NCBI GenBank assembly: GCA_051003195.1
Contig: JBPCLP010000034.1
Coordinates: 3,850 to 67,849 of the forward strand
DNA length: 64,000 bases
From: Candidatus Sumerlaeaceae bacterium
GTDB lineage: Bacteria > Sumerlaeota > Sumerlaeia > Sumerlaeales > Sumerlaeaceae
Direction of reading: 5' to 3'
The notes under the pieces were generated by a model, which was given only the letters and a program-made list of their open reading frames with translations, did no database searches and was not told the DNA's origin. Made by a program: the position numbers and the translations under genes. Below, piece after piece: positions 4,405 to 53,981 of the stretch (positions are counted from its first letter, which is position 1; each line of letters begins with the position of its first letter).

Positions 4405-5367
4405 TTACAAACGCTCCACGACCCGCAGCTTTGCGCTACGTGCACGTGGGTTGACGTCGACCTCCGTTGGCTCGGCAACCACCGGCTTCGGCGTCACAAT
4501 ACGGAACTGCGGTTTACGTCCACAGACGCAGACCGGTAATTCCGGTGGGCAGATGCAGCCTTGTGCCCAGGCACGGAAGGCGTCCTTCACCCGCCGATCT
4601 TCGAGCGAATGAAAGCTGATGATGCCCACCCGTGCGCCCGGCTTGCATGCGTCCCGCAACTTTGGCAGCACCTCGTCGAGCTCGGCGAGTTCCCGATTTA
4701 CCTCGATTCGCAACGCCTGGAAAACGCGCGTGGCCGGGTCCATCTTCGGAGGCCATGCCTTCCTTGGAATCGACCGTGACACGATCGCACGCAGATCGGA
4801 AGTCGTGCGGATGGGCGATGCTTTCCGCACTCTCACGATCTCCCGCGCAATGCGACGGGCAAACCGCTCTTCGCCAAAGCTATCAAAGATCCTGGACAAC
4901 TCAAACTCATCCCCAGTGGCCAGAACATCGGCCGCACTCCGGGTGCCGGGTTCCTGCGGATTCATCCGCATGTCCAGCGGCCCCTCGCGCTTGAGGCTGA
5001 AACCCCTCTCCGGCTCATCCAGGTGCAGACTGCATACTCCTACATCCAGAAAGAACCGGTCAAAATGGCCGATGCGGCGGCTGGCCAGCGCCAGGTCAAA
5101 CTGCGAAAACCGCCGCACCTCCACCTCGAACTGCTCTTCGCGGGTGAAACCAACATTTATCAGCTCCCGCGCCGCAAGTTCAGCAACCTGCGGGTCTCTA
5201 TCCAGCCCCAGGAGGAAACCTCCTGGGCTAACAGACTTTAAAAACTCTTTTGCGTGGCCGGCGGCACCGACCGTACCATCCACAACCACCTGCCCCGGCG
5301 CGAACGCCATGTGCTGCAGGCTTGCCTGCAACAAGACAGGGACGTGGACCTTACGATCACTTGACAC
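4405..5367 (-). CDS. rsmH: 16S rRNA m4C1402 methyltransferase RsmH (MraW)
   Basis: HVPVLL, VDGTVGAAGH, LGLDRDP, PLDMRMN, TRVFQALRIEVNREL, SFHSLEDRRVK, NPRARSAKLR. Confidence 0.97.
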   Translation of the reverse strand: MSSDRKVHVPVLLQASLQHMAFAPGQVVVDGTVGAAGHAKEFLKSVSPGGFLLGLDRDPQVAELAARELINVGFTREEQFEVEVRRFSQFDLALASRRIGHFDRFFLDVGVCSLHLDEPERGFSLKREGPLDMRMNPQEPGTRSAADVLATGDEFELSRIFDSFGEERFARRIAREIVRVRKASPIRTTSDLRAIVSRSIPRKAWPPKMDPATRVFQALRIEVNRELAELDEVLPKLRDACKPGARVGIISFHSLEDRRVKDAFRAWAQGCICPPELPVCVCGRKPQFRIVTPKPVVAEPTEVDVNPRARSAKLRVVERL

Positions 5368-5863
5368 CGGCCTGCCGGTTCCGGAAGACGTCTGCCATTA
5401 CCGATTTATAATTACGGGCGGTTCCGGCATTGAACTCCTTCCACTTCCCAGCGTCCCAAATCTCCATCTTGTCCTGCTGCCCCACAAAAACCACATCCGT
5501 CGTCAGTTCAGCCAGCTCACACAGGCTGGTCGTCAGCCTTATACGGTTCTGCGTATCCAGCGGGGCCACCACCATGTTTCCGAAGGTGAAGGTCCTTAGA
5601 TCGTCAGCGCTCGGATCGAACTCCGAAAGCTGCTCGAGCTTGGCCTGCACCGATCGCCAGACCGGGATTGGCAGTACCTTCACCTTTCCCGAATCCGGAA
5701 CGAGAACCACGTGGGAACCTGTAACTCCATACTGCGAATCGAGCACCTGTTTGAACTTCGCGGGAAAGGCCAGCCGAAGCGCCTTGTCCAAGCGAAGGTT
5801 GAAGTTTCCCGTAAACCCGAAGGAAAGCTCCACGGTGTTTGATTCTGGCGGTATGTTCTCCAA
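5357..5863 (-). CDS. mraZ: Transcriptional regulator MraZ
   Basis: FTGNF...LDKALRLAFP and LDTQNRIRL...VVFVGQQDKMEIWD (two SpoVT/AbrB-like repeats); directly upstream of rsmH. True start may be GTG 5833. Confidence 0.93.
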   Translation of the reverse strand: MENIPPESNTVELSFGFTGNFNLRLDKALRLAFPAKFKQVLDSQYGVTGSHVVLVPDSGKVKVLPIPVWRSVQAKLEQLSEFDPSADDLRTFTFGNMVVAPLDTQNRIRLTTSLCELAELTTDVVFVGQQDKMEIWDAGKWKEFNAGTARNYKSVMADVFRNRQAGVK

Positions 5864-7078: not shown

Positions 7079-7603
7079 TCACGGTTTCCGCTCAATTCGC
7101 AAGGGTTTATCGAACCAGGTAAATTGGGCCGGGACGAGAACGTGTTTATTTGCATCGGAAATACTCAGCGTTGCGGGCGGGGCGCCGGGCAGCTGGTTGA
7201 TAAATGGCGCTGAAAGGAAAACAGTCGCTGGCGCGGCACTTAAGTCGAATTGGAGATCGAATTTAACCTCGGCGCCGCTCGTGACGCTGACATGGAGCGG
7301 GCGTGCAACGATCGTTCGGCCCTCCGCTGTCATTGTTATTTTCGCGGTTGCGAGAAGCCGAAGCGTCTCGGAACTCTGGCCCCACTCCGCAGGACTGACC
7401 ACGCTATCGTCGTTGGGATCCACATACTGGTGAAGCAATCCGACACCCACACGCAGGTCCAGCATTGCCGAGCTGGTACTGAGTGTGATGGTTCCGATGA
7501 CAGAGGTTGGTCCATGGCAGTAGCCGGACCGCGCAAGCAGCAGCAGTGTAACGTAAAAGGTCAATCTACACAAGTGCGACATAATAGCCTCCGAAACCTG
7601 CAT
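7079..7603 (-). CDS. Secreted protein with predicted N-terminal His and EF-hand-like loop
   Basis: Signal-like LCRLTFYVTLLLLARSGYC then HG; DPNDDSVVSPAE loop; TGATG overlap with upstream stop at 7603. Confidence 0.65.
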   Translation of the reverse strand: MQVSEAIMSHLCRLTFYVTLLLLARSGYCHGPTSVIGTITLSTSSAMLDLRVGVGLLHQYVDPNDDSVVSPAEWGQSSETLRLLATAKITMTAEGRTIVARPLHVSVTSGAEVKFDLQFDLSAAPATVFLSAPFINQLPGAPPATLSISDANKHVLVPAQFTWFDKPLRIERKP

Positions 7604-8115
7604 CAGTGAACGCTTCCCGCTTTGCGATCAACGTCATCGCAGCCGCGAAAAGGCATCCAGCAGCTTTTGCGTAGTATAGAAAGCGGGAACCGATCCCTGA
7701 AGCCGGTTGCGACGCGGATTACGCCAAAATAAACTTCATAGTATAGTCGCGCCCAAAACCCCGCGAACCCCGTCCGGCAACGCGCCCGCAAGCAAAGCAA
7801 TTCCCCTCTTGCAGCCGGTGGCAAAAGCTCCCGGCTCCGCAGCCACTTGAGAAAGCTGAGCGCGTCCTGTGCTGCTGCCGGCACCGAGGGGTGCTCGCCG
7901 AAGTATCGGGTCACCAGGTGCGCAAATCGATCCCCCATCACGGTGAGCGTGGCGGGCAGCATTCGCTCAAGGCAGCGCCGCCGTTTATTGCGCAGTGACT
8001 GGCTGGTGCGCACGAGCATAGGCACCGAAGCGCCGGCAGGTGCCTCTCCACCGCACATCAGCGCCTGCACCATTTGCGCCTGCTGCTTTGAAATTTGTTC
8101 ACGGAAGGACGGCAT
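7603..8115 (-). CDS. Putative MNIO partner protein (helical, DUF692-associated)
   Basis: MPSFREQISKQQAQMVQALMCGGEAPAG...SQSLRNKRRR resembles the small proteins that follow DUF692 in TIGR04222 loci; overlaps the DUF692 stop. Start ATG 8115, not the 8400 ORF-track start. Confidence 0.6.
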   Translation of the reverse strand: MPSFREQISKQQAQMVQALMCGGEAPAGASVPMLVRTSQSLRNKRRRCLERMLPATLTVMGDRFAHLVTRYFGEHPSVPAAAQDALSFLKWLRSRELLPPAARGELLCLRARCRTGFAGFWARLYYEVYFGVIRVATGFRDRFPLSILRKSCWMPFRGCDDVDRKAGSVH

Positions 8116-8941
8116 GCACCCGGTTCCAGCTCGACGCAATTTGATCCATCTCTGCATTCCACTCATTGTGCGTCGGGTATTGATCGTCGCGCTCGAGCAG
8201 GACACCTCCAGGCGCACACATTCCACACAACTCATCCAGCAGCTCGAAAACCGGAGCTGCAACGCCATGCGCGTGGGAGTCGACATATGTGCCATCAGCC
8301 TGCACATAACCCCCGCCGACGTGAACATACGCGACTCGCTCCAGCGGCAGCTCCGCGAGAAAGGTTCGCGCATCCATGCGCAGATTCTGCGCGTTCGCAT
8401 ACACGTTGGCGATGTCGAGCAGCAGCATCGCGCCCGTTTCGTGCAGCAATTCGGTTACAAACTGGGCCTCACTCATTTGCGCGTCCGGCCACTCGAAAAG
8501 CGCGGAGATGTTCTCCAATGCAAAAGGCACCGGCAGAAAGGCCTGTGCCGCGCGGACGTTCTCGATCAGCACACCAAGCGAATCGCGGGTGCGTGCAACG
8601 GGCAGCAAGTGACCGGCTTCGACCCCGCCGGCGCGCACAAATGCGATGTGCTCGCTGACCAGCGGTGACTTGAATTTCTCAGCCAGAAGAGCGAGATGCT
8701 CCAGTCGCCTTTCATCGAGTGTGTCCGCGCCACCCAATGACAGCGATATGCCATGCGGCACAACGTGCACCCCATCCTCGTGCAACTGCCTGAGCGCGGG
8801 CGGAATTTCATTACTGAAATTTTCAGCAGTGATCTCGACGAAGTTTATATCCTCGCGCAGTTCGATTGCACGCGCCAGTTCAGGGCGCCAGCCGGCACCG
8901 AGACCCAGTCGCGGTAGTTGTACAGCAGTTCCGCTAATCAC
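8099..8941 (-). CDS. DUF692 family multinuclear non-heme iron oxidative enzyme (MNIO)
   Basis: GLGAGWRPE, FVEITAEN, HGISLSLGG, SEHIAF, ENIS, LLLDIANVYAN, HVGGG, DSHAH, LLERD; GTG at 8941 overlaps the upstream TAG. Confidence 0.92.
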   Translation of the reverse strand: MISGTAVQLPRLGLGAGWRPELARAIELREDINFVEITAENFSNEIPPALRQLHEDGVHVVPHGISLSLGGADTLDERRLEHLALLAEKFKSPLVSEHIAFVRAGGVEAGHLLPVARTRDSLGVLIENVRAAQAFLPVPFALENISALFEWPDAQMSEAQFVTELLHETGAMLLLDIANVYANAQNLRMDARTFLAELPLERVAYVHVGGGYVQADGTYVDSHAHGVAAPVFELLDELCGMCAPGGVLLERDDQYPTHNEWNAEMDQIASSWNRVHAVLP

Positions 8942-9878
8942 CGCCGCCTCCCCCGCCACAACCACCACAGCCGCCTCCACCGCCACCACTGTCGCTACTG
9001 CTACTTCCCCCGCTTCCGCAACTGCCGCTGGAATCACCGCCCCCATAGCTGGAAGAACCGCCGCCGTCTCCCGAACGGTTACGTTTTACCCAATCGTTCA
9101 AGTCAGGGTACATCGCTGGAATTGCCGCGACGCCAAACAATGCGACACCGAGTGCGAGGTCGTTGCCACTCAGGCTGCTGCCACCGCTCTTCACCACGGC
9201 CTTCAATGACTCGCTCTTTTTTCGCAGCTTCGACAAAGTAGTGTCGGCACGCGACGTGCGGAAAAACTGCCCGGCAAGGCAAAGCAGCGCAATCAGCACC
9301 GTCGCAATCACAAATGCGATCAGGAAACCTACCGGCTTGTCCCGCGAAATCCCGACCCAGATTTTGATCGCGCCCACCGCCGCAACCACGAGGTAGAGGC
9401 TCATCATCAGGATTCGAATGCTCCAGATCGAGTTCTTCGACAGCAGCATGCCCATGCGCAGCAGCTTCTCGTGCATTTTATCAAAGGCTGGCGCGCACGC
9501 GCCAAATAGATCGCCCAGGCGGCCAACTTTCTGTGTATCCACCTGCCGGACAATTTCCTGTTCAAGCGGGTGCTCGACGTCGCGACGCCTCGACCCCTCG
9601 CCGTATACCACGGACACCGCATCGCCCATGATATGAATAACACCTTTTTGCAGCAAACTGGTGAGGGCGGCCTGGTACGCGCGTGGCGGGCCGCCCTGCA
9701 GATAAGCGACGTCGTAAGGATCCAGCCGCCCGGCCGCCAACTGGTCGTAGTCGGATGGCCCGCGCATGAAGTAACGCATGATCAGCCCCACGATCATTGC
9801 GCCACCAAACATCACTCCATACAGCACAAGAAACTGCGGCCCGCGAAGATCAAAAAATGCCGGCAGATCAATTAGCAT
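8934..9878 (-). CDS. TIGR04222 domain membrane protein with Gly/Ser/Cys-rich C-terminal tail
   Basis: FFDLRGPQFLVLYG, LDPYDVAYLQGGPPRA, SRDKPVGFL, RTSRAD; tail SGSCGSGGSSSSDSGGGGGGCGGCGGGGGGD. Confidence 0.88.
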   Translation of the reverse strand: MLIDLPAFFDLRGPQFLVLYGVMFGGAMIVGLIMRYFMRGPSDYDQLAAGRLDPYDVAYLQGGPPRAYQAALTSLLQKGVIHIMGDAVSVVYGEGSRRRDVEHPLEQEIVRQVDTQKVGRLGDLFGACAPAFDKMHEKLLRMGMLLSKNSIWSIRILMMSLYLVVAAVGAIKIWVGISRDKPVGFLIAFVIATVLIALLCLAGQFFRTSRADTTLSKLRKKSESLKAVVKSGGSSLSGNDLALGVALFGVAAIPAMYPDLNDWVKRNRSGDGGGSSSYGGGDSSGSCGSGGSSSSDSGGGGGGCGGCGGGGGGD

Positions 9879-9990: not shown

Positions 9991-10905
9991 CTACAAATTG
10001 CGCAGACGGAAGATGAGCATGAGAGAGCGGCTGGGAGTGGTAATCCCCAGAACAACCGGGCGCATGGTGTCGGTGCGGAAGTGGTTGGCAAATACAGTTC
10101 GTCCGACGGACAGGTCGAAGGGGTTCGCACCCTTGTCTTTTTCGGCCAGGTTCAGCGCAACTTCGTAGTCGCCGGTAAGCGTCTGACGCAACTCGTAGAG
10201 CAAAGTCATGCGTTCGCTAAACTGCACCGTGTTCTCCCCGCCACCAGTGGCCGGCGCCGTCAGATCGGCAATTTTCCAAAGGCGCCCGGGCATTGCGGCG
10301 GATTCGAGATCGTTCGCTGCGAGGCCCATGTTCGGTAAATTTGCGGGGAGTTGCGCAAGCGCAATAGGGGTCGCGGTGGTAGTGTCGTCCGGCGCATGGT
10401 CTGTAAGAAGCGCCGCGTGAAGTTGAATCTGTTTCACCGGCCGTTTCATTGCCGAGCGGATTTGCTCTGTAAGCTGCACTGTGCGTCGGAGCGACTCGGA
10501 AGTGCCGGTGACGGCGACATGTGCGCTGTCGATCTGCTTCGCCGTGAGGTTTTTGCCGAGTGTAGGGCCGATGATTTGGAGAAACTCGCGTGCATCGATT
10601 CCAGTTTCGAGCACGCGTGTCTCGGCAGGAGCCCCGCTCTTAGCAGCATACCCCCCAGTACCAGGCTTCGCGGGAGCTGTCAGCCGCGCGGGAGATTTGT
10701 CCAGCAGGCTGCCTCCTTTGAGCGTCGCTGTAGCCGCGTCGTTATGCACGCTGGGGCGCCTGTCAGTTCGAGTGGTCGTACTGTCGAAGCTGCGTACGGA
10801 TGAAGGGCCCTGGCCGGTGCTGTCGATCTCAGACATCTGCGCGCCACAGCACGCGCTCAGCATGACGAGGGTGCCGGGTAAAACAGCTTTTCTTATGCGT
10901 ACCAT
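9991..10905 (-). CDS. Hypothetical lipoprotein, possibly with a secretin-N-like alpha/beta domain
   Basis: Lipobox-like MLSAC; Thr/Ala/Pro linker; IDAREFLQII...HVAVTGTSESLRRTVQLTEQI. Confidence 0.55.
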   Translation of the reverse strand: MVRIRKAVLPGTLVMLSACCGAQMSEIDSTGQGPSSVRSFDSTTTRTDRRPSVHNDAATATLKGGSLLDKSPARLTAPAKPGTGGYAAKSGAPAETRVLETGIDAREFLQIIGPTLGKNLTAKQIDSAHVAVTGTSESLRRTVQLTEQIRSAMKRPVKQIQLHAALLTDHAPDDTTTATPIALAQLPANLPNMGLAANDLESAAMPGRLWKIADLTAPATGGGENTVQFSERMTLLYELRQTLTGDYEVALNLAEKDKGANPFDLSVGRTVFANHFRTDTMRPVVLGITTPSRSLMLIFRLRNL

Positions 10906-10924: not shown

Positions 10925-11173
10925 TCAGTAGGTGCGTGGCACGTCAGCTGTCGCGTACGTCCACAGAATCCGCGTGCCCGAGGATGTTATATGCTCGACC
11001 GTCAGCACCTTACGCTCCGGATCAAGCAGATCGCTTTCAAGCCGTGCAAGCGTCTTCGAGCCGGTCGTCATGCGAACGTTCCCAGAGGTTGATAAGGAAC
11101 TTTGCCCATAGACGGGAATGCTAGTCCCAAGGGCGATCACCATCGCGCCGAGACAACTCACCTTCTCGATCAT
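10925..11173 (-). CDS. Small secreted hypothetical protein (82 aa)
   Basis: MIEKVSCLGAMVIALGTSIPVYGQ signal-like; ATGA overlap with the stop of the upstream fusion gene. Confidence 0.5.
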   Translation of the reverse strand: MIEKVSCLGAMVIALGTSIPVYGQSSLSTSGNVRMTTGSKTLARLESDLLDPERKVLTVEHITSSGTRILWTYATADVPRTY

Positions 11174-14100
11174 GTGTGCCCACATGCTGCGTTTACTTTC
11201 AGCAGGGCGGCTCCGTAAGTATAACCTCCACCAAAGGCAGTGAGTCCCAGCAGATCGTCCGTGTGCAGTTCGGCCGAGTTCACGAGGTCGCGCAGGCATA
11301 GCGGAATCGTGGAGGAAGAAGTATTGCCAAGCATCCGGATATTACTGAAGACCTTTTCCGGCGCGACGCCGAGATCCACGCCAAGATCATTAAGGATTCG
11401 CTGATTTGCCTGATGCGCTACCACATAGCGCAGATCCGTCGGCAGGATTCCATGCGCGCGGCAGACTTCGCGCAACGATTCGCTTAACGCTGGTATGCTT
11501 TCCTGCCGCACGTGCCGTCCCTCGAGCTGGATGTACTCGCCCGTACCAATGGGCGGAACGGTCAGCGCGTTTTCCTGGTCGCCTTTCGCATGCACGCTCG
11601 GCCGCAACACTTCAAATGGAGCGGACTGTGCAAACGATTGACCGCCGACAATACAAGCGGTCGCGGCATCTCCGAAACCGATACACGTGGCAGCATTCGT
11701 CGGGTCCAGCAATGACGACAGAGTTTCGGCTGTCACCACGAGTGCGCGGCTTTGCGGGCTGGCTTTGATCAATCCATGTGCGATCTGTAACGCGTAAAGG
11801 AAACCAGTGCAGGTAGCGAGCACGTCAAAAGCGGGCGCGCGGCACGCCGGCAGTCGATGATTCAACTCCGCCAGGATGCTGCATGCGATGGATGGACACA
11901 CCTGACTGACGGAACTCGTTGCACAGACAATGAGATCCAGGTGCTGGAAGGCCGAAGGATCCGCATCATAACAGGCATCCACGGCTTTCATCGCCAGCGT
12001 AAATGCTGTCTCGCCCTTTGCCGCGCGGCACCGGCTTACGATGCCAATCTTGCGCAGAATATCTTCTTCGGTAAGTTCCGGAAAACGCGCAGCGAGGTCA
12101 GCATTGGTCGTGGTTTGCGAGCCCTGCGCAGTATAAACTCGGGAAAGGAATACGGCGGTGCTACGGCGCGGATCGATTATCTCCGGATTTTGCATAGAGG
12201 GAATTTCGCGGCGCACGATATCTTGGGGTAACACACGACGCTTAACGACCGGTAGTGGCCGGTTCGGGATGTGCATCTGGCCAAGGCCAGACGTGCGCGG
12301 CTCGGGCGTGCGGATGCTGATCAACGGCGTTCCGATCCGTACCATGTCGCCCGCGCTCACGAGTATCTTTTCTACGCAACCACTCACGGGCGCGTCCAGT
12401 TCTCCCGCCGCCTTGTCGGCTTCCACTTCTGCAATGGTATCGCCAACCTTGATCTCTTTGCCGACCTCCACGAACCATTGAAGGATGGTAAGCTGCTCAT
12501 CAGACGGGCTGGTGCCAAACGCCTCCACGACATACAGGTGCGGGTCAGTCTCAACTGCGTGGGCCGCCGCGGGCTCGACATCGAGGTCGAGCAGTTCGGC
12601 GGCGGCTTCCACGATCGCCGCCGCGCTTGGCAAAACCTCGAGCTGGTTGCCGAAATTGCACGGTATGTGCGTATCCGCGCGCGTCACGCGCCGCATGTGC
12701 ACCTGGCGGGAAGCCTTCTCGGCGATCGTTGCGCACACCTCTGCGCCAAATCCGACCGACCGATTGTCTTCGTGCACGACAATCAAATTCCCGGTCCGCT
12801 CGACGGAGGAGATCACGGTGGCTGCGTCCCAGGGCGAGATGCACCGCAGATCGATGACCTCGGCACTGACGCCCACTGCATGCAGATGCTGCGCTGCGGC
12901 CGTGCAGAGTGGCACCGTTCCTCCCCAACCGAGGATGGTGACCTCCGTGCCGCGGCGCATCACGCGGGCGCTGCCCAGCGGGACGATCAGGTGTTCGGGT
13001 AATTCGCGCGTCGCCAGTGAGCGGTCGTTCAGGCAACTTTTCGGATAGAGGAAAATCGTCGGACGCCGTGACGCGAACGCCGCGTTCAGCAGACCTGCCG
13101 CATCTTCGGCGTTTGATGGCATGATCACATCCAGTCCGGGGATGTGGGCTACTACCGATTCCAGCGTTTGCGCGTGAAAGGGACCCAGGCCGGCCTTGTA
13201 GCCGCCGCAAACCGCCATCACGATAACAGGGGCCTGCCACCCGCCATCCGTGCGCCAGTATATACTGGCCAGTTCGGCGGCAATCTGGTTGAATGCGAGC
13301 GGAATAAAATCCGCAAATTGCAGAAACGCGACCGGGCGCTTACCGGCAAGTGCGCGGCCAATGGATACGCCAATGATCGTGGATTCGGAAAGCGGCGAGT
13401 TCTCCACCTGCTCGGGAAATGCAGTACCCAGGCCGCGCGTGAGTCCGAAAACGTCTCCCTTCGGATCATCGATGTCCTGGCCATATAGGATGACGTCCTG
13501 ATTCGCGGCGAGTTGCGCCCGTAATGTCCGACGCATGGCTTCCAGCATCGTCAGGGGGCCATCCACCGGAGGCGCAGGTTCTGCCAAAGCGGGGGCTGCT
13601 ATACGTGGCAGCGGGGGTTTCGCGTCCATGCATGCAGTCGGCTCCGCCGCACGCTTCGCCCGCTCGGCGGCCGCATTGACCTCTTCGCGCGCGGTCGACG
13701 TGATTTCATCCAGCTCCTGTTGCGTCACGCCGAGCTGCAGCAAATCAGATGCAAGCACGGCAAGCGGATCGCCGGTACCCGCTGCGCTTGCAATTTCCTC
13801 AGCGCTGCGATAGACAGCCTGGTCGTCCGCGTTGGTGTGATCGTCCAGGCGTTCGGTTCGCAACACCGCGATGACCGGTGCGCGGTTCTCCCGCGCGCGC
13901 TGCACCATGCTGCCAAAGACCGCATAGCACGACTGCACACTCGAGCCGTCGAGGTAGTGTATCGGAATGCCCATGAATTCGTCGGCGAGGCCAGTCGGCA
14001 GTGAGTAAAACGTTTTGCCGGCCGTGCGTGTGCTGATGGCGAAGTAATTATCTTCGACCAGCCACAGCACCGGCAGATGTGACCGCACCGATTCCGCAAT

Positions 14101-14580
14101 AGCTTCCAGCACTTCGCCTTCCTGAGTTGTTCCGTCGCCAACGCAGCACACTACCACCGGCTGCCCGTTGCGCTCCTTTACGGCGGACGCAATGCCCGCT
14201 GCCTGAAGCGCGTTATTTCCCACCGGTCCCACGACGCTGAGCACATTCAGCGAAGGCGCACTCATGTGTGCGCTCATCTGGCGCCCGCGCGAGTGCGAAT
14301 CGTTTTTGCAAAAGAGCGCGAGAAAAAAGTCTTCCGCAGCGATTCCGCGCGCCAGCATCAATGCCTTGTCACGGTAGTGGCAATGCAGCCAATCCTGAGT
14401 GCCGAGATGCGGCGCCAGCGCGGCCGTTGCCCCATGACCAAAACCCGCCACATGAAAGAACGCTTCGCCGCGGTTGGTGAACTGCCGCTCGAGTTCGTCG
14501 ATACGACGTGCCGCCACCAGCGTATGGTATAGCGGCAACAGGGCCCGCGTGGTCGCGGTTGACAGGTCGACTGAACTCAT
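11170..14580 (-). CDS. Fusion: 2-oxoacid dehydrogenase E1alpha + E1beta + lipoyl domain + FabH-like 3-oxoacyl-ACP synthase III
   Basis: HCHYRD, GDGTTQEG...VEDN (TPP motif), HTNADD; NSPLSESTIIG, EVIDLRCISPWD; VEADKA lipoyl Lys; ATCTGF, HQAN, GNTSSS (Cys-His-Asn triad). Confidence 0.92.
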   Translation of the reverse strand: MSSVDLSTATTRALLPLYHTLVAARRIDELERQFTNRGEAFFHVAGFGHGATAALAPHLGTQDWLHCHYRDKALMLARGIAAEDFFLALFCKNDSHSRGRQMSAHMSAPSLNVLSVVGPVGNNALQAAGIASAVKERNGQPVVVCCVGDGTTQEGEVLEAIAESVRSHLPVLWLVEDNYFAISTRTAGKTFYSLPTGLADEFMGIPIHYLDGSSVQSCYAVFGSMVQRARENRAPVIAVLRTERLDDHTNADDQAVYRSAEEIASAAGTGDPLAVLASDLLQLGVTQQELDEITSTAREEVNAAAERAKRAAEPTACMDAKPPLPRIAAPALAEPAPPVDGPLTMLEAMRRTLRAQLAANQDVILYGQDIDDPKGDVFGLTRGLGTAFPEQVENSPLSESTIIGVSIGRALAGKRPVAFLQFADFIPLAFNQIAAELASIYWRTDGGWQAPVIVMAVCGGYKAGLGPFHAQTLESVVAHIPGLDVIMPSNAEDAAGLLNAAFASRRPTIFLYPKSCLNDRSLATRELPEHLIVPLGSARVMRRGTEVTILGWGGTVPLCTAAAQHLHAVGVSAEVIDLRCISPWDAATVISSVERTGNLIVVHEDNRSVGFGAEVCATIAEKASRQVHMRRVTRADTHIPCNFGNQLEVLPSAAAIVEAAAELLDLDVEPAAAHAVETDPHLYVVEAFGTSPSDEQLTILQWFVEVGKEIKVGDTIAEVEADKAAGELDAPVSGCVEKILVSAGDMVRIGTPLISIRTPEPRTSGLGQMHIPNRPLPVVKRRVLPQDIVRREIPSMQNPEIIDPRRSTAVFLSRVYTAQGSQTTTNADLAARFPELTEEDILRKIGIVSRCRAAKGETAFTLAMKAVDACYDADPSAFQHLDLIVCATSSVSQVCPSIACSILAELNHRLPACRAPAFDVLATCTGFLYALQIAHGLIKASPQSRALVVTAETLSSLLDPTNAATCIGFGDAATACIVGGQSFAQSAPFEVLRPSVHAKGDQENALTVPPIGTGEYIQLEGRHVRQESIPALSESLREVCRAHGILPTDLRYVVAHQANQRILNDLGVDLGVAPEKVFSNIRMLGNTSSSTIPLCLRDLVNSAELHTDDLLGLTAFGGGYTYGAALLKVNAACGHT

Positions 14581-17516: not shown

Positions 17517-19658
17517 ATGGACACTTCACGTAATACTGACACTACAGACTACGAGATTCTCGTAGGCACACCAAATGACGGTGCGGGGACGCCGGAATCT
17601 TCCAGTGCGTCTGCGCGATCCGAAGAGTCGCTCGCGCTACTGCCCGAAAGCACGGTTGGCTGCATCCAGGTAGTACGTCTCATTGGCTGCGGCAAAGTTA
17701 GCGAGTCCTGGTTCGGCGTCGATGCAAAGAACCAGCGCGAAGTGGTCGTTAAGGTACTGCGCAAGCCATGGTCATCCGATTCGACTGTGCTCTCATACTT
17801 CGAAAGTCAGCTTAACGCCATTCGATCACTGGATCATCCGAACCTTGCCAACGTGCTCGATGTCGGTCAGGACGATGGTATGCTTTTCTGGGTCACGGAA
17901 TGGGTAAAAGGCGGTTCAGTATGGCCGAAGATTCGCCGCAAAGGCCCCATGGAAATCCCGGCTGCGTTCAACATCGTCGATCAGGCTGCGGCAGGACTAG
18001 CCAGTGGTGCAGTGGCGGGGCTGGTTCACGGCGGACTTAAGCCCGAGAACATCCTGATGGAACGCTCCGGCGCGGTGAAGGTGTCGGATCTTGGAGTAGA
18101 ATTCGCCGCGCGCCAGCTGGTGAGTGGTACACCTGCCGCATCCACGCTTTGGCTTGCGGAGTTCATGGCTCCGGAAGTGCGGAGCGGCGGCATCCCGGAC
18201 ATCCGGAGCGACATCTATTCGCTGGGTGCCATCCTTCTCTACCTGGTCGCAGGTGTTGTACCGCACGATGGACTCCTGGATGCGACAAGTCCGCGGATCA
18301 CACCGGCACTGCGTCAGCTGCTGATTAAAATGACGGCTACCGGTCCGGATGACCGGCTACAGGATTACGGTGAACTGCGCGGCTGTCTCTCGGATGTCGA
18401 ATCGGCTATTGTTAACAGTGCGGCGACACCGGGCGATTTGATTTCGGCAACAGCGGCTCCAAAGAACGAGACGACCGGTGTGCACTCTGGGGATACACAG
18501 GAACTGTTTGAAACGCAAGAGACGCTATTCGACTCGGAGCCCGGTGAGCGGGCTGTCCCAGCGGCGGCCACTGCTACACGGCAGGATGCGGATCAGACGA
18601 CACCGGAACGAGAATTAACTGAAGCCGACCTTTTGCGAGCCTTTGCAAACGAGGAGGACCTGGTCTACAACGCGCCGGAACCGGCGCCCACTCCGATCGA
18701 TTTAGCAACTGGCGACCCTTCGCACAAACTAGTTTCGCAGACATGGGCGACACCGGCACGTCCAGCTAAGTCTCGAAAGCTGGCGGTTAGTGCGGTCGCA
18801 GTGCTCGCGGTCGCAGCAGCCGGCGCGGCCGCATGGTTCCTGACTCAAGGCAAGCCGGAGCCAAAGAAGGTCGTCGAAACCAAGGCGGTTGCACCTCGGG
18901 CGACAACTCCTCTTTCCCAACCCACCGTAACTGCGCAGGCAACACCTCTGCCGTCATCAGGTTCCGTTGTCACGCAGCCCGCTCCGCGAACGGTTTCAAC
19001 ACTGCCTGATCTTACTGCTGCGACGGCGACTCCGCCGCCCATTATCGATCCACCCGCCATTATTGCGCCGCCGGGAGTGGACCCCGTAGCGCTTGCTCAG
19101 ATCGCCGCGACACCCGCAAGTCCCGGGGTTGCAGTAAATTTTTTGCCGCACACGGCACCATCCTTTTCACCGGGAGCAGTGGCTGCAGCCGCCCGCACAG
19201 CTCCGGCACCATCCAATGATTCCATCATTGTCGACAATGCTGTTTCCGGCGCACTGGAACTTGATCCGCCATCGGGATGGCAGGCGTCACCGGAAACACG
19301 CGCATCGTATGCCGGGAGTTCGCTGGTTGCCATTACCGGCGGCGCCTCGCAGAAAGCTACGTTTACAGCTGATGTTCCGAAAGCCGGACGCTACCAGTTA
19401 TACATGTGGTGGGTTGCGCGTTCGTCGGATGTCAGGTCGGCAACCGTCCCGGTTACGATACATACTGCCACCGGACCGATCAACATCACGGTGGACCAGG
19501 TTAACAGTGACAGCGACTTTAATCTGATTGGTACTTATAACCTCAAGGCAGGCGTGCACCAACCGATCGTTTCTGTGAGCACAGATGGAATCAAAAATCC
19601 CAGCGGCAATGTGCATGTTTCCGTCGATGCACTTAAGCTAATTCCCAAAAACGATTAG
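17517..19658 (+). CDS. Transmembrane Ser/Thr kinase-like protein (probable pseudokinase) with extracytoplasmic golvesin/Xly-like carbohydrate-binding domain
   Basis: VVVKVL, LDHPNL, VHGGLKPENIL, VSDLG, FMAPE, DIYSLG; TM AVSAVAVLAVAAAGAAAWFL; C-terminal IIVDN...AGRYQLYMWW...DALKL. Confidence 0.85.
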   Translation: MDTSRNTDTTDYEILVGTPNDGAGTPESSSASARSEESLALLPESTVGCIQVVRLIGCGKVSESWFGVDAKNQREVVVKVLRKPWSSDSTVLSYFESQLNAIRSLDHPNLANVLDVGQDDGMLFWVTEWVKGGSVWPKIRRKGPMEIPAAFNIVDQAAAGLASGAVAGLVHGGLKPENILMERSGAVKVSDLGVEFAARQLVSGTPAASTLWLAEFMAPEVRSGGIPDIRSDIYSLGAILLYLVAGVVPHDGLLDATSPRITPALRQLLIKMTATGPDDRLQDYGELRGCLSDVESAIVNSAATPGDLISATAAPKNETTGVHSGDTQELFETQETLFDSEPGERAVPAAATATRQDADQTTPERELTEADLLRAFANEEDLVYNAPEPAPTPIDLATGDPSHKLVSQTWATPARPAKSRKLAVSAVAVLAVAAAGAAAWFLTQGKPEPKKVVETKAVAPRATTPLSQPTVTAQATPLPSSGSVVTQPAPRTVSTLPDLTAATATPPPIIDPPAIIAPPGVDPVALAQIAATPASPGVAVNFLPHTAPSFSPGAVAAAARTAPAPSNDSIIVDNAVSGALELDPPSGWQASPETRASYAGSSLVAITGGASQKATFTADVPKAGRYQLYMWWVARSSDVRSATVPVTIHTATGPINITVDQVNSDSDFNLIGTYNLKAGVHQPIVSVSTDGIKNPSGNVHVSVDALKLIPKND

Positions 19659-52154: not shown

Positions 52155-53981
52155 TTAGTGGATCTGAGGCTGACCAGGCAGTTGGATTGGCGTAAGTATG
52201 ATCCCGCTGGTGGTGGCTTTCTCTGCCAGCGTAATGTAGCCCTTCCAAACATCGTCGGGTGAACTTGCCACTTTAACGCTGACGGTGCGCGCTCGCCCGA
52301 ATGCCTGCTTTCCAAGTCTTGCAATGACATCGAAATGACCCGGGTGAAGTTTTTCACAACGGAAGCGTCCCGTATCATCAGAGAAAACCGGTTGTTGCGA
52401 GTAGATGTTAACTACCGGCATGTTGGGTGTGAGAATTGGCGCATTCGACGTCGTGTGTATTTGAAGCTCCTGACCCACGCTGTCAGCCGATTCCAGCGTC
52501 GAGACTGACAGCTTTGCGCCTGCAACCGGCCGTCCGTCACTGTCGATCACCTGTCCCTCAATACTTGCGCCGTCAGTGGGCATCACGATTTGAAGACCAA
52601 CTGCGGGCGCGGTTGCCGAGGCAGTGGTCTGCACATAATCTGCATTCACGAAGCGCAGGGCGCATCGACGGGATGCGGGTGCTTCGAATCGAAAGGTTCC
52701 ATCGTCGTTACATCTGTGCCACTGCTGCGGCTTGTTTTCCCTGTTTTCCCAACGAACCGCTATATAAACGTGTAGGATGGGTGATCCCTGCTCGTTTGTC
52801 ACACGGCCTGAGATCTCCGCATTGTCAGCTTTTGCAGTGCTATTTGCTGCAACAGGGGCCGCGGCGGCCGTTACGGTTTGTGGTGAGGATTGCGCGAGGA
52901 TGATGGGTGTGGCGGCCAGCGGCGTCGAGGACGCAGGGCTTTCGTGAATGCGGACAGGCGTCTCGCTGCTGATGACGTTTGGCTTCGCTCCGGCAGCTGC
53001 TACGGATGTCACTTGCGCAGGCCGGGAAAGATCTCGCGCGAGCGGGGGAGCAAGAACGCTTTCCGTTTTTGTCGAAGCAGGTGACGCTTTTATCCTGATG
53101 TCTGATTGTATGGTTTGTACTCTTCGACCACTCTCACCAGGTATGGTTACGGCAATTTGGTCCGTTGCAGGTGATCCCGATCCGAACCATATTACAGCTG
53201 CGACGGCTGCTGCTCCTAATCCTAATGCCGGCATGAGCTTTCCTCCTGGTAGTGGGTTTGATAAGACAGAAGTCCGTGGAATAGTGGCTTGCCTGATGAG
53301 CTGCTCGCGCGCCTGAGCAGGCAGCGAGATTGCGGCGCCGATAAGCGCAACAGCGCCGGCGACTCTCTGCTTGCGAGACGCAGGCGGTTTGAGATCGCGC
53401 TCCATATCAGCGGCGGTAAACTCTCGAAGGTTCGCGAGTGCGCGTTGAAGCTGGCGCGACACAGTGGACGGCTGAACGGATAGTTGTCGGGCCACTTCGC
53501 TTAGCGAGAGTCCCTCGCCGAAATGAAGCATCACTACATCGCGCTGGGACGGGGGCAGGGTAGAAATATAAGCGCGCAGGTTGACCGCCGTTTCATTGTC
53601 GGTGGCCTGCTCCATCGGCGTGGGGCGGCGATCCTTCACCTGTGCGAGCAGCTCGGATTCTGTGGTGACAAATTGTACGAGCCGGGAAGCACGGATCTGC
53701 TTTTTGCGCCAGTCGAACGCCAGGTTACGCGCCGTTCGCAAAACCCAGGGAGCAAATAATCGGGAGTTCCGAAGCGAGGCCAGGTTGAGAAACACGCGCA
53801 GAAACACTTCCTGTGTAAGGTCCTCGGCGCTTTCCCGGTCCCACAGAATGCTGTAGCCGACGGCGAACACGCTACCGTAGTAGCGCTCAACCAGGCGTGA
53901 GAATGCGAGCTGGTCGCCATCCCGTGCGGCGTCCGTCCACACCGCGTCGGTGTGCACGAGCTCATCGCTGAGTTCCGTCAT
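52155..53981 (-). CDS. ECF (RpoE-type) sigma factor fused to a TM segment and carboxypeptidase-regulatory-like domains
   Basis: GDQLAFSRLVERY, AEDLTQEVFLRVF, FAPWVLRTARNLAFD; LPPSQRDVVMLHFGEGLSLSEVARQL; TM ALGLGAAAVAAVIWF; ISGRVTNEQGSPI, IEGQVIDSDGRPVAGA. Confidence 0.88.
   Translation of the reverse strand: MTELSDELVHTDAVWTDAARDGDQLAFSRLVERYYGSVFAVGYSILWDRESAEDLTQEVFLRVFLNLASLRNSRLFAPWVLRTARNLAFDWRKKQIRASRLVQFVTTESELLAQVKDRRPTPMEQATDNETAVNLRAYISTLPPSQRDVVMLHFGEGLSLSEVARQLSVQPSTVSRQLQRALANLREFTAADMERDLKPPASRKQRVAGAVALIGAAISLPAQAREQLIRQATIPRTSVLSNPLPGGKLMPALGLGAAAVAAVIWFGSGSPATDQIAVTIPGESGRRVQTIQSDIRIKASPASTKTESVLAPPLARDLSRPAQVTSVAAAGAKPNVISSETPVRIHESPASSTPLAATPIILAQSSPQTVTAAAAPVAANSTAKADNAEISGRVTNEQGSPILHVYIAVRWENRENKPQQWHRCNDDGTFRFEAPASRRCALRFVNADYVQTTASATAPAVGLQIVMPTDGASIEGQVIDSDGRPVAGAKLSVSTLESADSVGQELQIHTTSNAPILTPNMPVVNIYSQQPVFSDDTGRFRCEKLHPGHFDVIARLGKQAFGRARTVSVKVASSPDDVWKGYITLAEKATTSGIILTPIQLPGQPQIH

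Follow-up and report, generated by a model that had tools for sequence, protein, structure and literature searches.

The window analyzed here, the whole 64,000-nucleotide (64-kb) stretch of contig JBPCLP010000034.1 from a Candidatus Sumerlaeaceae bacterium, carries three overlapping genes on its minus strand (9878-7603) in the order TIGR04222 membrane protein, MNIO (DUF692) enzyme and helical partner protein. On balance, these genes form what is likely a translationally coupled maturation cassette in which the integral membrane protein is itself the substrate. Sequence comparison suggests that the cysteine-containing C-terminal tail of this protein is probably the segment modified by the MNIO. 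Such a role of the tail is the best-supported reading, because the three-gene order is conserved between unrelated flanks, because conserved Cys residues occur in the tail only, because no other conserved open reading frame (ORF) or credible precursor was found, and because the partner and MNIO domains occur fused in one natural protein. A preliminary description of this DNA had arrived at the same idea, which is not new. TIGR04222-MNIO-'PME-type 2' clusters and the hypothesis of a tail substrate, including the DUF2063-like partner, were published from bioinformatics in 2025 in Microb Genom (PMC12452194). According to that study there are more than 3,500 TIGR04222 proteins, and the modifications and roles of the clusters 'remain to be investigated'. 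The new observation of the present analysis is that MNIO genes and a UCP032817-like domain were never found together next to this kind of tail in the 57 loci compared. The components of the cassette are the following:

9878..8934, minus strand: TIGR04222 domain-containing membrane protein of 314 aa (ORF, NCBIfam, AlphaFold2, hydropathy and charge).
8937..9068, minus strand: tail-coding region for residues 271-314, the proposed substrate segment (conservation, low predicted local distance difference test score, pLDDT).
8099..8941, minus strand: MNIO (DUF692) enzyme of 280 aa, counted from the GTG at 8941 (Pfam, NCBIfam, ligand columns).
7603..8115, minus strand: MNIO partner of 170 aa, helical, DUF2063-like, 'PME-type 2' (PF26136 SCO6045_C, AlphaFold2 model).

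The genes for the membrane protein and the MNIO overlap by 8 nt, those for the MNIO and the partner by 17 nt. In the first overlap, GTGATTAG (8941..8934), GTG is the start codon of the MNIO and TAG the stop codon of the membrane protein; a GGAGG is located 5 nt upstream of this GTG. The gene caller had placed the MNIO start at the upstream in-frame GTG 8968, and further in-frame GTG codons are found at 8965 and 8959. The start at 8941 is preferred since the resulting product of 280 aa is close to the 281-282 aa of its relatives. The partner gene runs from 8115, where its ATG lies 17 nt within the MNIO gene, to 7603. Both overlaps had been recognized in the preliminary description and were borne out by the ORF coordinates. 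Its further structural statements held as well: the membrane protein with the Cys tail has 314 aa and ends in ...SGSCGSGGSSSSDSGGGGGGCGGCGGGGGGD, the metal-ligand motifs of the MNIO are intact in all nine ligand columns, the AlphaFold2 model of the partner is all-helical over residues 4-138, and a search for small ORFs in and around the cassette returned no separate precursor gene and no credible Cys-rich candidate. The few nearby ORFs with at least two Cys were all without ribosome-binding sites and unconserved, and were rejected as precursors. No second copy of any cassette gene is present in the 64-kb window. A promoter and terminator scan gave nothing above the shuffle expectation, and Rfam and tRNA scans gave no matches.

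The membrane protein was assigned to NCBIfam family TIGR04222 with 136.9 bits (cutoff 43), residues 19-253 aligning with positions 1-228 of the 229 profile positions. Its closest relative shows 37% identity. The AlphaFold2 model has a mean pLDDT of 80.8. Transmembrane (TM) segments are located at about residues 13-38, 148-178 and 184-202, an alpha/beta soluble domain at 54-141 and a basic loop at 206-238; a marginal fourth hydrophobic helix (238-256) is followed by a disordered tail of Gly, Ser, Asp and Cys, whose residues 271-301 have pLDDT values below 50. This layout agrees with the published description of TIGR04222 proteins as having several TM segments and an unstructured, Ser/Gly-rich C-terminus interspersed with Cys (PMC12452194). 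The whole model gave no significant Foldseek match in the PDB. An assignment of the soluble domain as a RiPP recognition element (RRE; RiPP, peptide made on the ribosome and modified after translation) or as a domain of the winged helix-turn-helix type was considered and found unsupported, the Foldseek comparison with the PDB being without significant match.

The three Cys codons of the tail are located at 9020-9018 (C287), 8969-8967 (C304) and 8960-8958 (C307). In an alignment of 19 relatives with 30-38% identity C304 and C307, which belong to a C-G-G-C-G motif, are invariant and C287 is nearly so, and no Cys outside the tail is conserved. Within the tail, conservation is confined to this terminal motif and the one Cys upstream of it. 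CGGCG lies within the last 15 residues in 112 of the 119 nearest homologues, and at least two Cys are found within the last 25 residues in all 119, a set that came from a word-seeded search in which tail words may be favoured. Most of these alignments, however, span just about 77-81% of the query, which points to a tail left outside them. By its conservation the tail is under selection and is not random low complexity. The last residue is Asp in the window protein and in about 30% of the close homologues, and MNIO-linked tails end variously in ...CGS, ...CGG or ...GGAS. As a polytopic protein of 314 aa without a match to DUF2282 or Buf_6/12_Cys in Pfam and NCBIfam, the membrane protein is not a bufferin-type precursor.

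The order TIGR04222-MNIO-SCO6045_C reappears, between unrelated flanks and at a protein identity of 33-37%, in two relatives, the closest ones that lie on long contigs. A genome scan with one genome per species, seeded on the tail motif with an alignment of six sequences, yielded 43 loci, all of them Cys-tailed by construction and hence uninformative on whether Cys-less tails avoid MNIOs. A hidden Markov model scan of their ORFs revealed an MNIO immediately downstream of the TIGR04222 gene in 23 of these 43 genome loci, and the same was found in 8 of 14 metagenome loci, which are likewise Cys-tailed by construction. The genome loci belong to Planctomycetota, Myxococcota, Acidobacteriota, Actinomycetota, Cyanobacteriota and Bdellovibrio; culturable carriers include Singulisphaera sp. 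Ch08 (L006), Myxococcus species (L013, L022) and Micromonospora (L030). All-versus-all clustering of the ORFs from 24 MNIO-positive loci recovered the membrane protein and the MNIO 24 times each and partner-like proteins in a cluster of 16 and a second cluster of 6. The remaining clusters consisted of antisense shadow ORFs and of one gene of about 255 aa in 5 loci; no metal gene recurred. Three loci (L016, L038, L046) have a single MNIO with a tandem of two or three TIGR04222 paralogues in front of it. Such tandems ahead of one enzyme are a pattern typical of RiPP precursors. These arrays, together with an MNIO that is nearest to the Cys-modifying enzymes BufB and HvfB, also favour the tail as the putative substrate.

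The tandem TIGR04222 arrays are located at L016:5860-7718, L038:5977-8555, L046:4101-6756 and L033:2657-4573; the last 60 residues of one L046 copy (4921-5775) are free of Cys. The gene of about 255 aa lies directly upstream of the TIGR04222 gene (L004:5228-5995, L008:782-1567, L010:5243-5995, L016:5228-5995, L047:5250-5990) and gave a weak match to a nucleotidyltransferase domain (E 0.0099). The window instead encodes a predicted lipoprotein of 304 aa with an LSAC lipobox (9991-10905).

The MNIO matches Pfam PF05114 (MbnB_TglH_ChrH) with 260.6 bits (cutoff 25) over positions 2-260 of the 263 profile positions. Its residues H62, H97, E143, D176, N179, H208, D221, H223 and E251 are identical in the DUF692 protein 3bww and in MbnB (7dz9), and TglH (8hci) is identical from H97 onward, where its alignment begins. 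We take these nine columns to be the iron-ligand positions of the MbnB structures. Among solved structures 3bww is the best sequence match (E 5.5e-26), and TglH matches with an E-value of 2.2e-19. The NCBIfam models scored in the order BufB (NF050167, 198.6 bits, equivalog cutoff 310), HvfB (NF003818, 181 bits, equivalog cutoff 360), ApyH (105.5 bits), ChrH (58.9 bits) and MbnB (34.6 bits, cutoff 325), those for ApyH and ChrH being below their equivalog cutoffs too. By sequence, the enzyme belongs to the bufferin/oxazolin neighbourhood and is not an equivalog of any named enzyme.

The AlphaFold2 model of the partner (mean pLDDT 80.7) contains no beta-strands and has a C-terminus of low confidence. 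A precomputed match to Pfam PF26136 (SCO6045_C) exists, and DUF2063 gave a weak match (E 0.022, 15.4 bits versus a cutoff of 27.2). Weak DUF2063 matches were also obtained for 19 of 53 members of the partner family, the best with an E-value of 1.8e-4. Queried with the partner, a word-indexed homologue search returned no protein but the query; an exhaustive HMMER search found 233 representatives of the family at E <= 1e-3, mostly of 110-200 aa. In a Foldseek comparison with 350,542 PDB chains MbnC (7dz9_C) ranked first (E 0.83, probability 0.82), TglI (8hci_A) second (E 1.6) and NGO1945 (3dee) 42nd, none of these matches being significant. MbnC and TglI are both MNIO partner proteins of solved structure. 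Partner and MNIO are joined in P0153, a natural fusion protein of 473 aa with an MNIO domain at residues 20-278 and a partner domain at 319-427. 'PME-type 1' partners combine DUF2063 with an RRE in about 250-260 aa; the window partner has 170 aa, a sub-threshold DUF2063 signal and no beta-strands. The term 'PME-type 2' is used for partners that resemble DUF2063 but lack its Pfam signature and, in many cases, an RRE domain (PMC12452194). The window partner is encoded directly after the MNIO gene and shows no Pfam DUF2063 signature. Taken together, the DUF2063 signal, the model, the non-significant Foldseek ranks and the fusion probably place it in 'PME-type 2'.

Two side observations concern the partner family. 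P0164 carries, besides its partner domain (residues 6-124), a trypsin-like peptidase domain (166-287), so that in some systems a protease may be brought to the substrate. The Pfam family takes its name from SCO6045 of Streptomyces coelicolor. In this species a set of 28 genes, SCO6045 and cysteine-biosynthesis genes among them, responds to H2O2 with an induction of about 3-fold that depends on HbpS-SenS-SenR (PMC4991794). As a clue to the partner family this induction is a weak lead.

The 20 genome loci without an MNIO showed a second pairing. A UCP032817-like domain (PF27765) was found in 16 of them and in none of the 23 MNIO-positive loci. The domain occurs in two arrangements:

UCP032817-like domain fused to the N-terminus of TIGR04222: L009, L011, L014, L015, L023, L025, L029, L031.
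UCP032817-like domain as a separate gene of about 190 aa immediately upstream: L018, L020, L024, L026, L027, L032, L034, L037.

The pairing pattern was also noted at four further loci (L049, L052, L054, L058). In the loci of this pattern the region concerned lies about 0-700 nt upstream of the TIGR04222 gene or is fused to it. Among the 14 independent metagenome loci, 8 have only the MNIO, 3 only the UCP032817-like domain and 3 neither, two of the latter on contigs of about 1.3 kb. Pooling of all 57 loci gave 31 with the MNIO only, 19 with the UCP032817-like domain only, none with both and 7 with neither. Fisher's exact test on these numbers yields a p-value of about 1e-9, which is overstated because the loci are not phylogenetically independent. 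Both pairing states occur within Planctomycetota, Cyanobacteriota and Acidobacteriota. The UCP032817-like domain carries a conserved His-rich motif, GHPVSPS..VD.AWHLHL.YTRSYW. It gave no match in the Pfam and NCBIfam libraries searched or among PDB sequences, and a literature search found no paper naming it. From this either/or pattern one may suspect that the same tail is served by two alternative accessory modules; it also supports a view of the membrane protein as the constant 'core' and of the enzymes as its modifiers.

Hydropathy and charge were used to place the segments of the membrane protein relative to the membrane. The first three TM segments reached best 19-residue Kyte-Doolittle means of 2.3-2.7 (averaged over 19 sequences) and summed insertion free energies of -3 to +0.7; for the fourth helix (238-256), which surrounds an invariant ALFG, the corresponding values were 1.63 (19 sequences) and about +5. 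In the AlphaFold2 model this fourth segment is an 11-residue helix. The loop in front of it has a mean net charge of +3.2 and should thus be cytoplasmic. Long forms of the family possess an extra hydrophobic segment, following an Arg/Lys-rich sequence, between an N-terminal domain and the TIGR04222 module. According to the positive-inside rule, both this N-terminal domain and the soluble domain of the TIGR04222 module would be cytoplasmic, whereas the N-terminus of the module would lie outside. In two of the long forms, P0085 and P0118, the hydrophobic stretch linking the UCP032817-like domain to the TIGR04222 module terminates with lipobox-like motifs (LLLGC, LAGC) preceded by an Arg-rich sequence, and so resembles an internal signal peptide.

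The window protein would accordingly be oriented with its N-terminus outside and with the soluble domain and the basic loop inside. For the tail to be periplasmic, the marginal fourth helix would have to cross the membrane. A periplasmic tail was predicted in PMC12452194; the computed topology is compatible with the periplasmic as well as with the cytoplasmic face. MNIO and partner have no signal peptide and must therefore act in the cytoplasm. Modification in the cytoplasm is feasible because the tail is the last segment to be synthesized.

From these data the following course of events can be proposed. The three genes would be co-translated, and the membrane protein would insert with its soluble domain in the cytoplasm. 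A cytoplasmic heterodimer of MNIO and partner would capture the acidic, disordered tail, the last part to come off the ribosome. The MNIO would then use O2 at a multi-iron site to oxidize Cys287, Cys304 and Cys307. HvfB reportedly forms a thiooxazole-type product, as the title of a 2026 preprint has it. By analogy with BufB and HvfB a thiooxazole-type heterocycle would be the most likely single outcome in the window system too, and as an assignment it stays tentative. The terminal CxxC would in this case become a chelating site of two heterocycles tethered at the membrane. A role of such a site in the binding of soft metals such as Cu is doubtful. The preliminary description had proposed a metal-binding product, for instance for Cu; this part is drawn by analogy and found no backing in the surroundings of the genes: no metal-homeostasis gene is present among the scanned genes of the window and no metal gene recurs in related loci.

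The either/or pairing can be combined with this mechanism in a broader proposal. In the cytoplasm, the CGGCG tails of the widespread TIGR04222 proteins might be processed by either of two modules that exclude each other: an MNIO with a short DUF2063-like partner, as in the window, or a UCP032817-like domain fused or encoded just upstream. In the MNIO branch a polytopic membrane protein would, for the first time, carry a heterocycle formed by an MNIO, and this would serve as a membrane-tethered chelator or redox site, not as a secreted peptide. In its entirety we regard this proposal as speculative and rather unlikely to hold.

Several observations weigh against the tail as a substrate of the MNIO and against a metal-binding product. 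Indistinguishable CGGCGG tails are found in the 20 of 43 genome loci that have no MNIO within 6 kb; the tail is thus independent of the enzyme. The earlier claim of a three-Cys tail as substrate is favoured by comparative genomics and at the same time qualified by these loci. A third of the TIGR04222-bearing genomes were reported to be without any MNIO (PMC12452194). No MNIO-specific leader or recognition element was detected, the segment in front of the tail being alike in MNIO-linked and MNIO-less proteins, and the model of the partner contains no recognizable RRE. With E-values of 0.83 and 1.6 the structural matches of this predicted model stay short of statistical significance, and searches of PDB sequences with the partner gave nothing as a profile and nothing meaningful as a single sequence. 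As the MNIO scores below the equivalog cutoffs of both BufB and HvfB, its chemistry may differ from theirs. If the tail is periplasmic, the cytoplasmic enzyme would have to act before translocation. Moreover, no metal-homeostasis gene was seen among the window genes scanned, and a full-text literature search found no experimental report on any TIGR04222 protein.

Some of these points would be explained if the membrane protein were not the substrate but a scaffold, anchor, exporter or sensor and the true substrate an unlinked or unannotated peptide. Same-tailed TIGR04222 proteins are common without an MNIO (PMC12452194 and the present loci), so that the protein must have a role apart from the enzyme. 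There is no RRE in the partner, no leader was identified, and the membrane protein contains a well-folded soluble domain of unassigned role. We nevertheless consider this explanation unlikely. No other conserved ORF accompanies the MNIO in the 24 clustered loci, there is no credible Cys-rich small ORF near the cassette and no second motif-bearing tail rich in Gly, Ser and Cys in the window. Tandem TIGR04222 paralogues precede a single MNIO, and the 8-nt overlap puts the start of the enzyme gene inside the tail-coding sequence.

Modified Cys residues are also not required if those of the tail act as free thiols, for example in metal or Fe-S binding, in disulfide exchange or as acylation sites, and the MNIO carries out other chemistry on the tail, for instance on the C-terminal Asp or on the backbone. 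This would account for a tail that is conserved with or without an adjacent MNIO and for the C-terminal Asp in the window protein and about 30% of its close homologues. ApyH, which the MNIO matches at 105.5 bits, is an MNIO that modifies a C-terminal Asp. Modification of Asp, Asn and Phe by MNIOs has been noted in small families (PMC12452194). However, the terminal residue is not conserved among MNIO-linked tails, whereas the Cys residues are, and the scores for BufB and HvfB are far above that for ApyH. This explanation is quite improbable. Finally, the idea that the Gly/Cys tail is incidental low complexity arising from GGC/TGC-rich repeats next to an MNIO by coincidence is effectively refuted: a single base does separate the codons for Gly (GGC/GGT) from those for Cys (TGC/TGT), and the composition of the tail is simple, but C304 and C307 are invariant at 30-38% identity, CGGCG is retained in 112 of 119 homologues and the gene order is kept across many phyla with unrelated flanks.

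Downstream of the cassette one further gene is coupled to it:

7079..7603, minus strand: protein of 174 aa with a signal-peptide-like N-terminus (sequence only).

Its start overlaps the stop codon of the partner gene by one base (TGATG). It is probably co-transcribed with the cassette in this genome and lies outside the conserved cassette. The protein was not found beside the cassette in the other loci compared and had no match in Pfam, NCBIfam or the PDB. Cleavage after ...SGYC would leave a mature protein with an N-terminal His (HGPTS...).

Among the window genes scanned are those of a dcw cluster and of glycine cleavage, together with genes for sensor kinases and a sulfatase. The sequencing runs carrying the sequence contain DNA only and come from one sediment metagenome study. 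About 1.3 kb upstream of the cassette (11170-14580, minus strand) an unusual fusion is encoded as a single polypeptide of 1136 aa, consisting of a 2-oxoacid dehydrogenase E1 component (E1_dh, Transket_pyr, Transketolase_C), a lipoyl/biotinyl domain and a KAS III domain (ACP_syn_III). Of two further genes at 52155-53981 (minus strand) and 17517-19658 (plus strand), one encodes a sigma factor of the ECF (extracytoplasmic function) type (Sigma70_r2/r4) with a long C-terminal extension containing CarboxypepD_reg, and the other a Ser/Thr kinase with a C-terminal Golvesin_C domain.

To our knowledge, MNIOs have so far been described with small-peptide substrates, among them methanobactins, bufferins and pearlins. 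Were the tail of a polytopic membrane protein modified as well, RiPP-type chemistry would extend to ordinary membrane proteins, and a new kind of membrane-tethered metal or redox site would exist in thousands of genomes. With three overlapping genes and three tail Cys the window locus is compact and offers a convenient construct. The either/or pairing with the UCP032817-like domain provides a second, independent handle on the purpose of the tail.

In comparison with known systems, the locus does not represent a bufferin, oxazolin, methanobactin or pearlin system, since the tests that define these systems came out negative. It shares with TglH/TglI, which act on TglA-Cys in the formation of 3-thiaglutamate, an MNIO with a partner and a Cys placed at the very C-terminal end of a larger scaffold. 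In that pathway the Cys beta-carbon is excised on a soluble scaffold of 50 residues (PMC9016710), and no membrane protein is involved. The methanobactin system MbnA/MbnB/MbnC likewise uses an MNIO and a helical partner for the modification of Cys, which gives a copper chelator, and MbnC is the top, non-significant Foldseek match of the window partner (E 0.83). However, the substrate in that case is a short peptide of leader and core that undergoes cleavage and secretion, and the MbnB model scores just 34.6 bits with the window enzyme.

The HvfA/HvfB/HvfC system of Haemophilus (Buf_EGKCG/oxazolin) provides the second-nearest enzyme model in HvfB, and in both systems a Gly follows the target Cys. 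It differs by a secreted precursor with EGKCG repeats and by a partner of PME-type 1 (PMC12452194). The bufferin system (BufA/BufB/BufC) supplies the nearest enzyme model in BufB and has the order of enzyme and then partner in common with the window locus. The chemistry of BufB is directed at Cys and leads to thiooxazole metal chelators (PMC12452194). Bufferin substrates are small Sec-signal peptides (DUF2282 or Buf_6/12_Cys), in contrast to the integral membrane protein of 314 aa without signal peptide found here, and their partner is a full DUF2063 protein with an RRE, often accompanied by DoxX (PMC12452194).

The closest correspondence is to the PME-type 2 class. Its three proteins and their order are those of the window locus, Cys residues are scattered through a Ser/Gly-rich C-terminus, the MNIO stands near the enzymes of bufferins and oxazolins and a short, helical DUF2063-like partner is encoded right after it. 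The window locus departs from this class in its host, an uncultured sediment bacterium whose RsmH is 58-70% identical to proteins labelled Candidatus Sumerlaeota, whereas most described members belong to Actinomycetota, in its minimal tail with three Cys, in the lineage-specific, predicted secreted protein coupled downstream and in a membrane protein with no relative above 37% identity. Judged by its gene content and sequences, the locus fits the known, uncharacterized TIGR04222-MNIO-PME-type 2 class.

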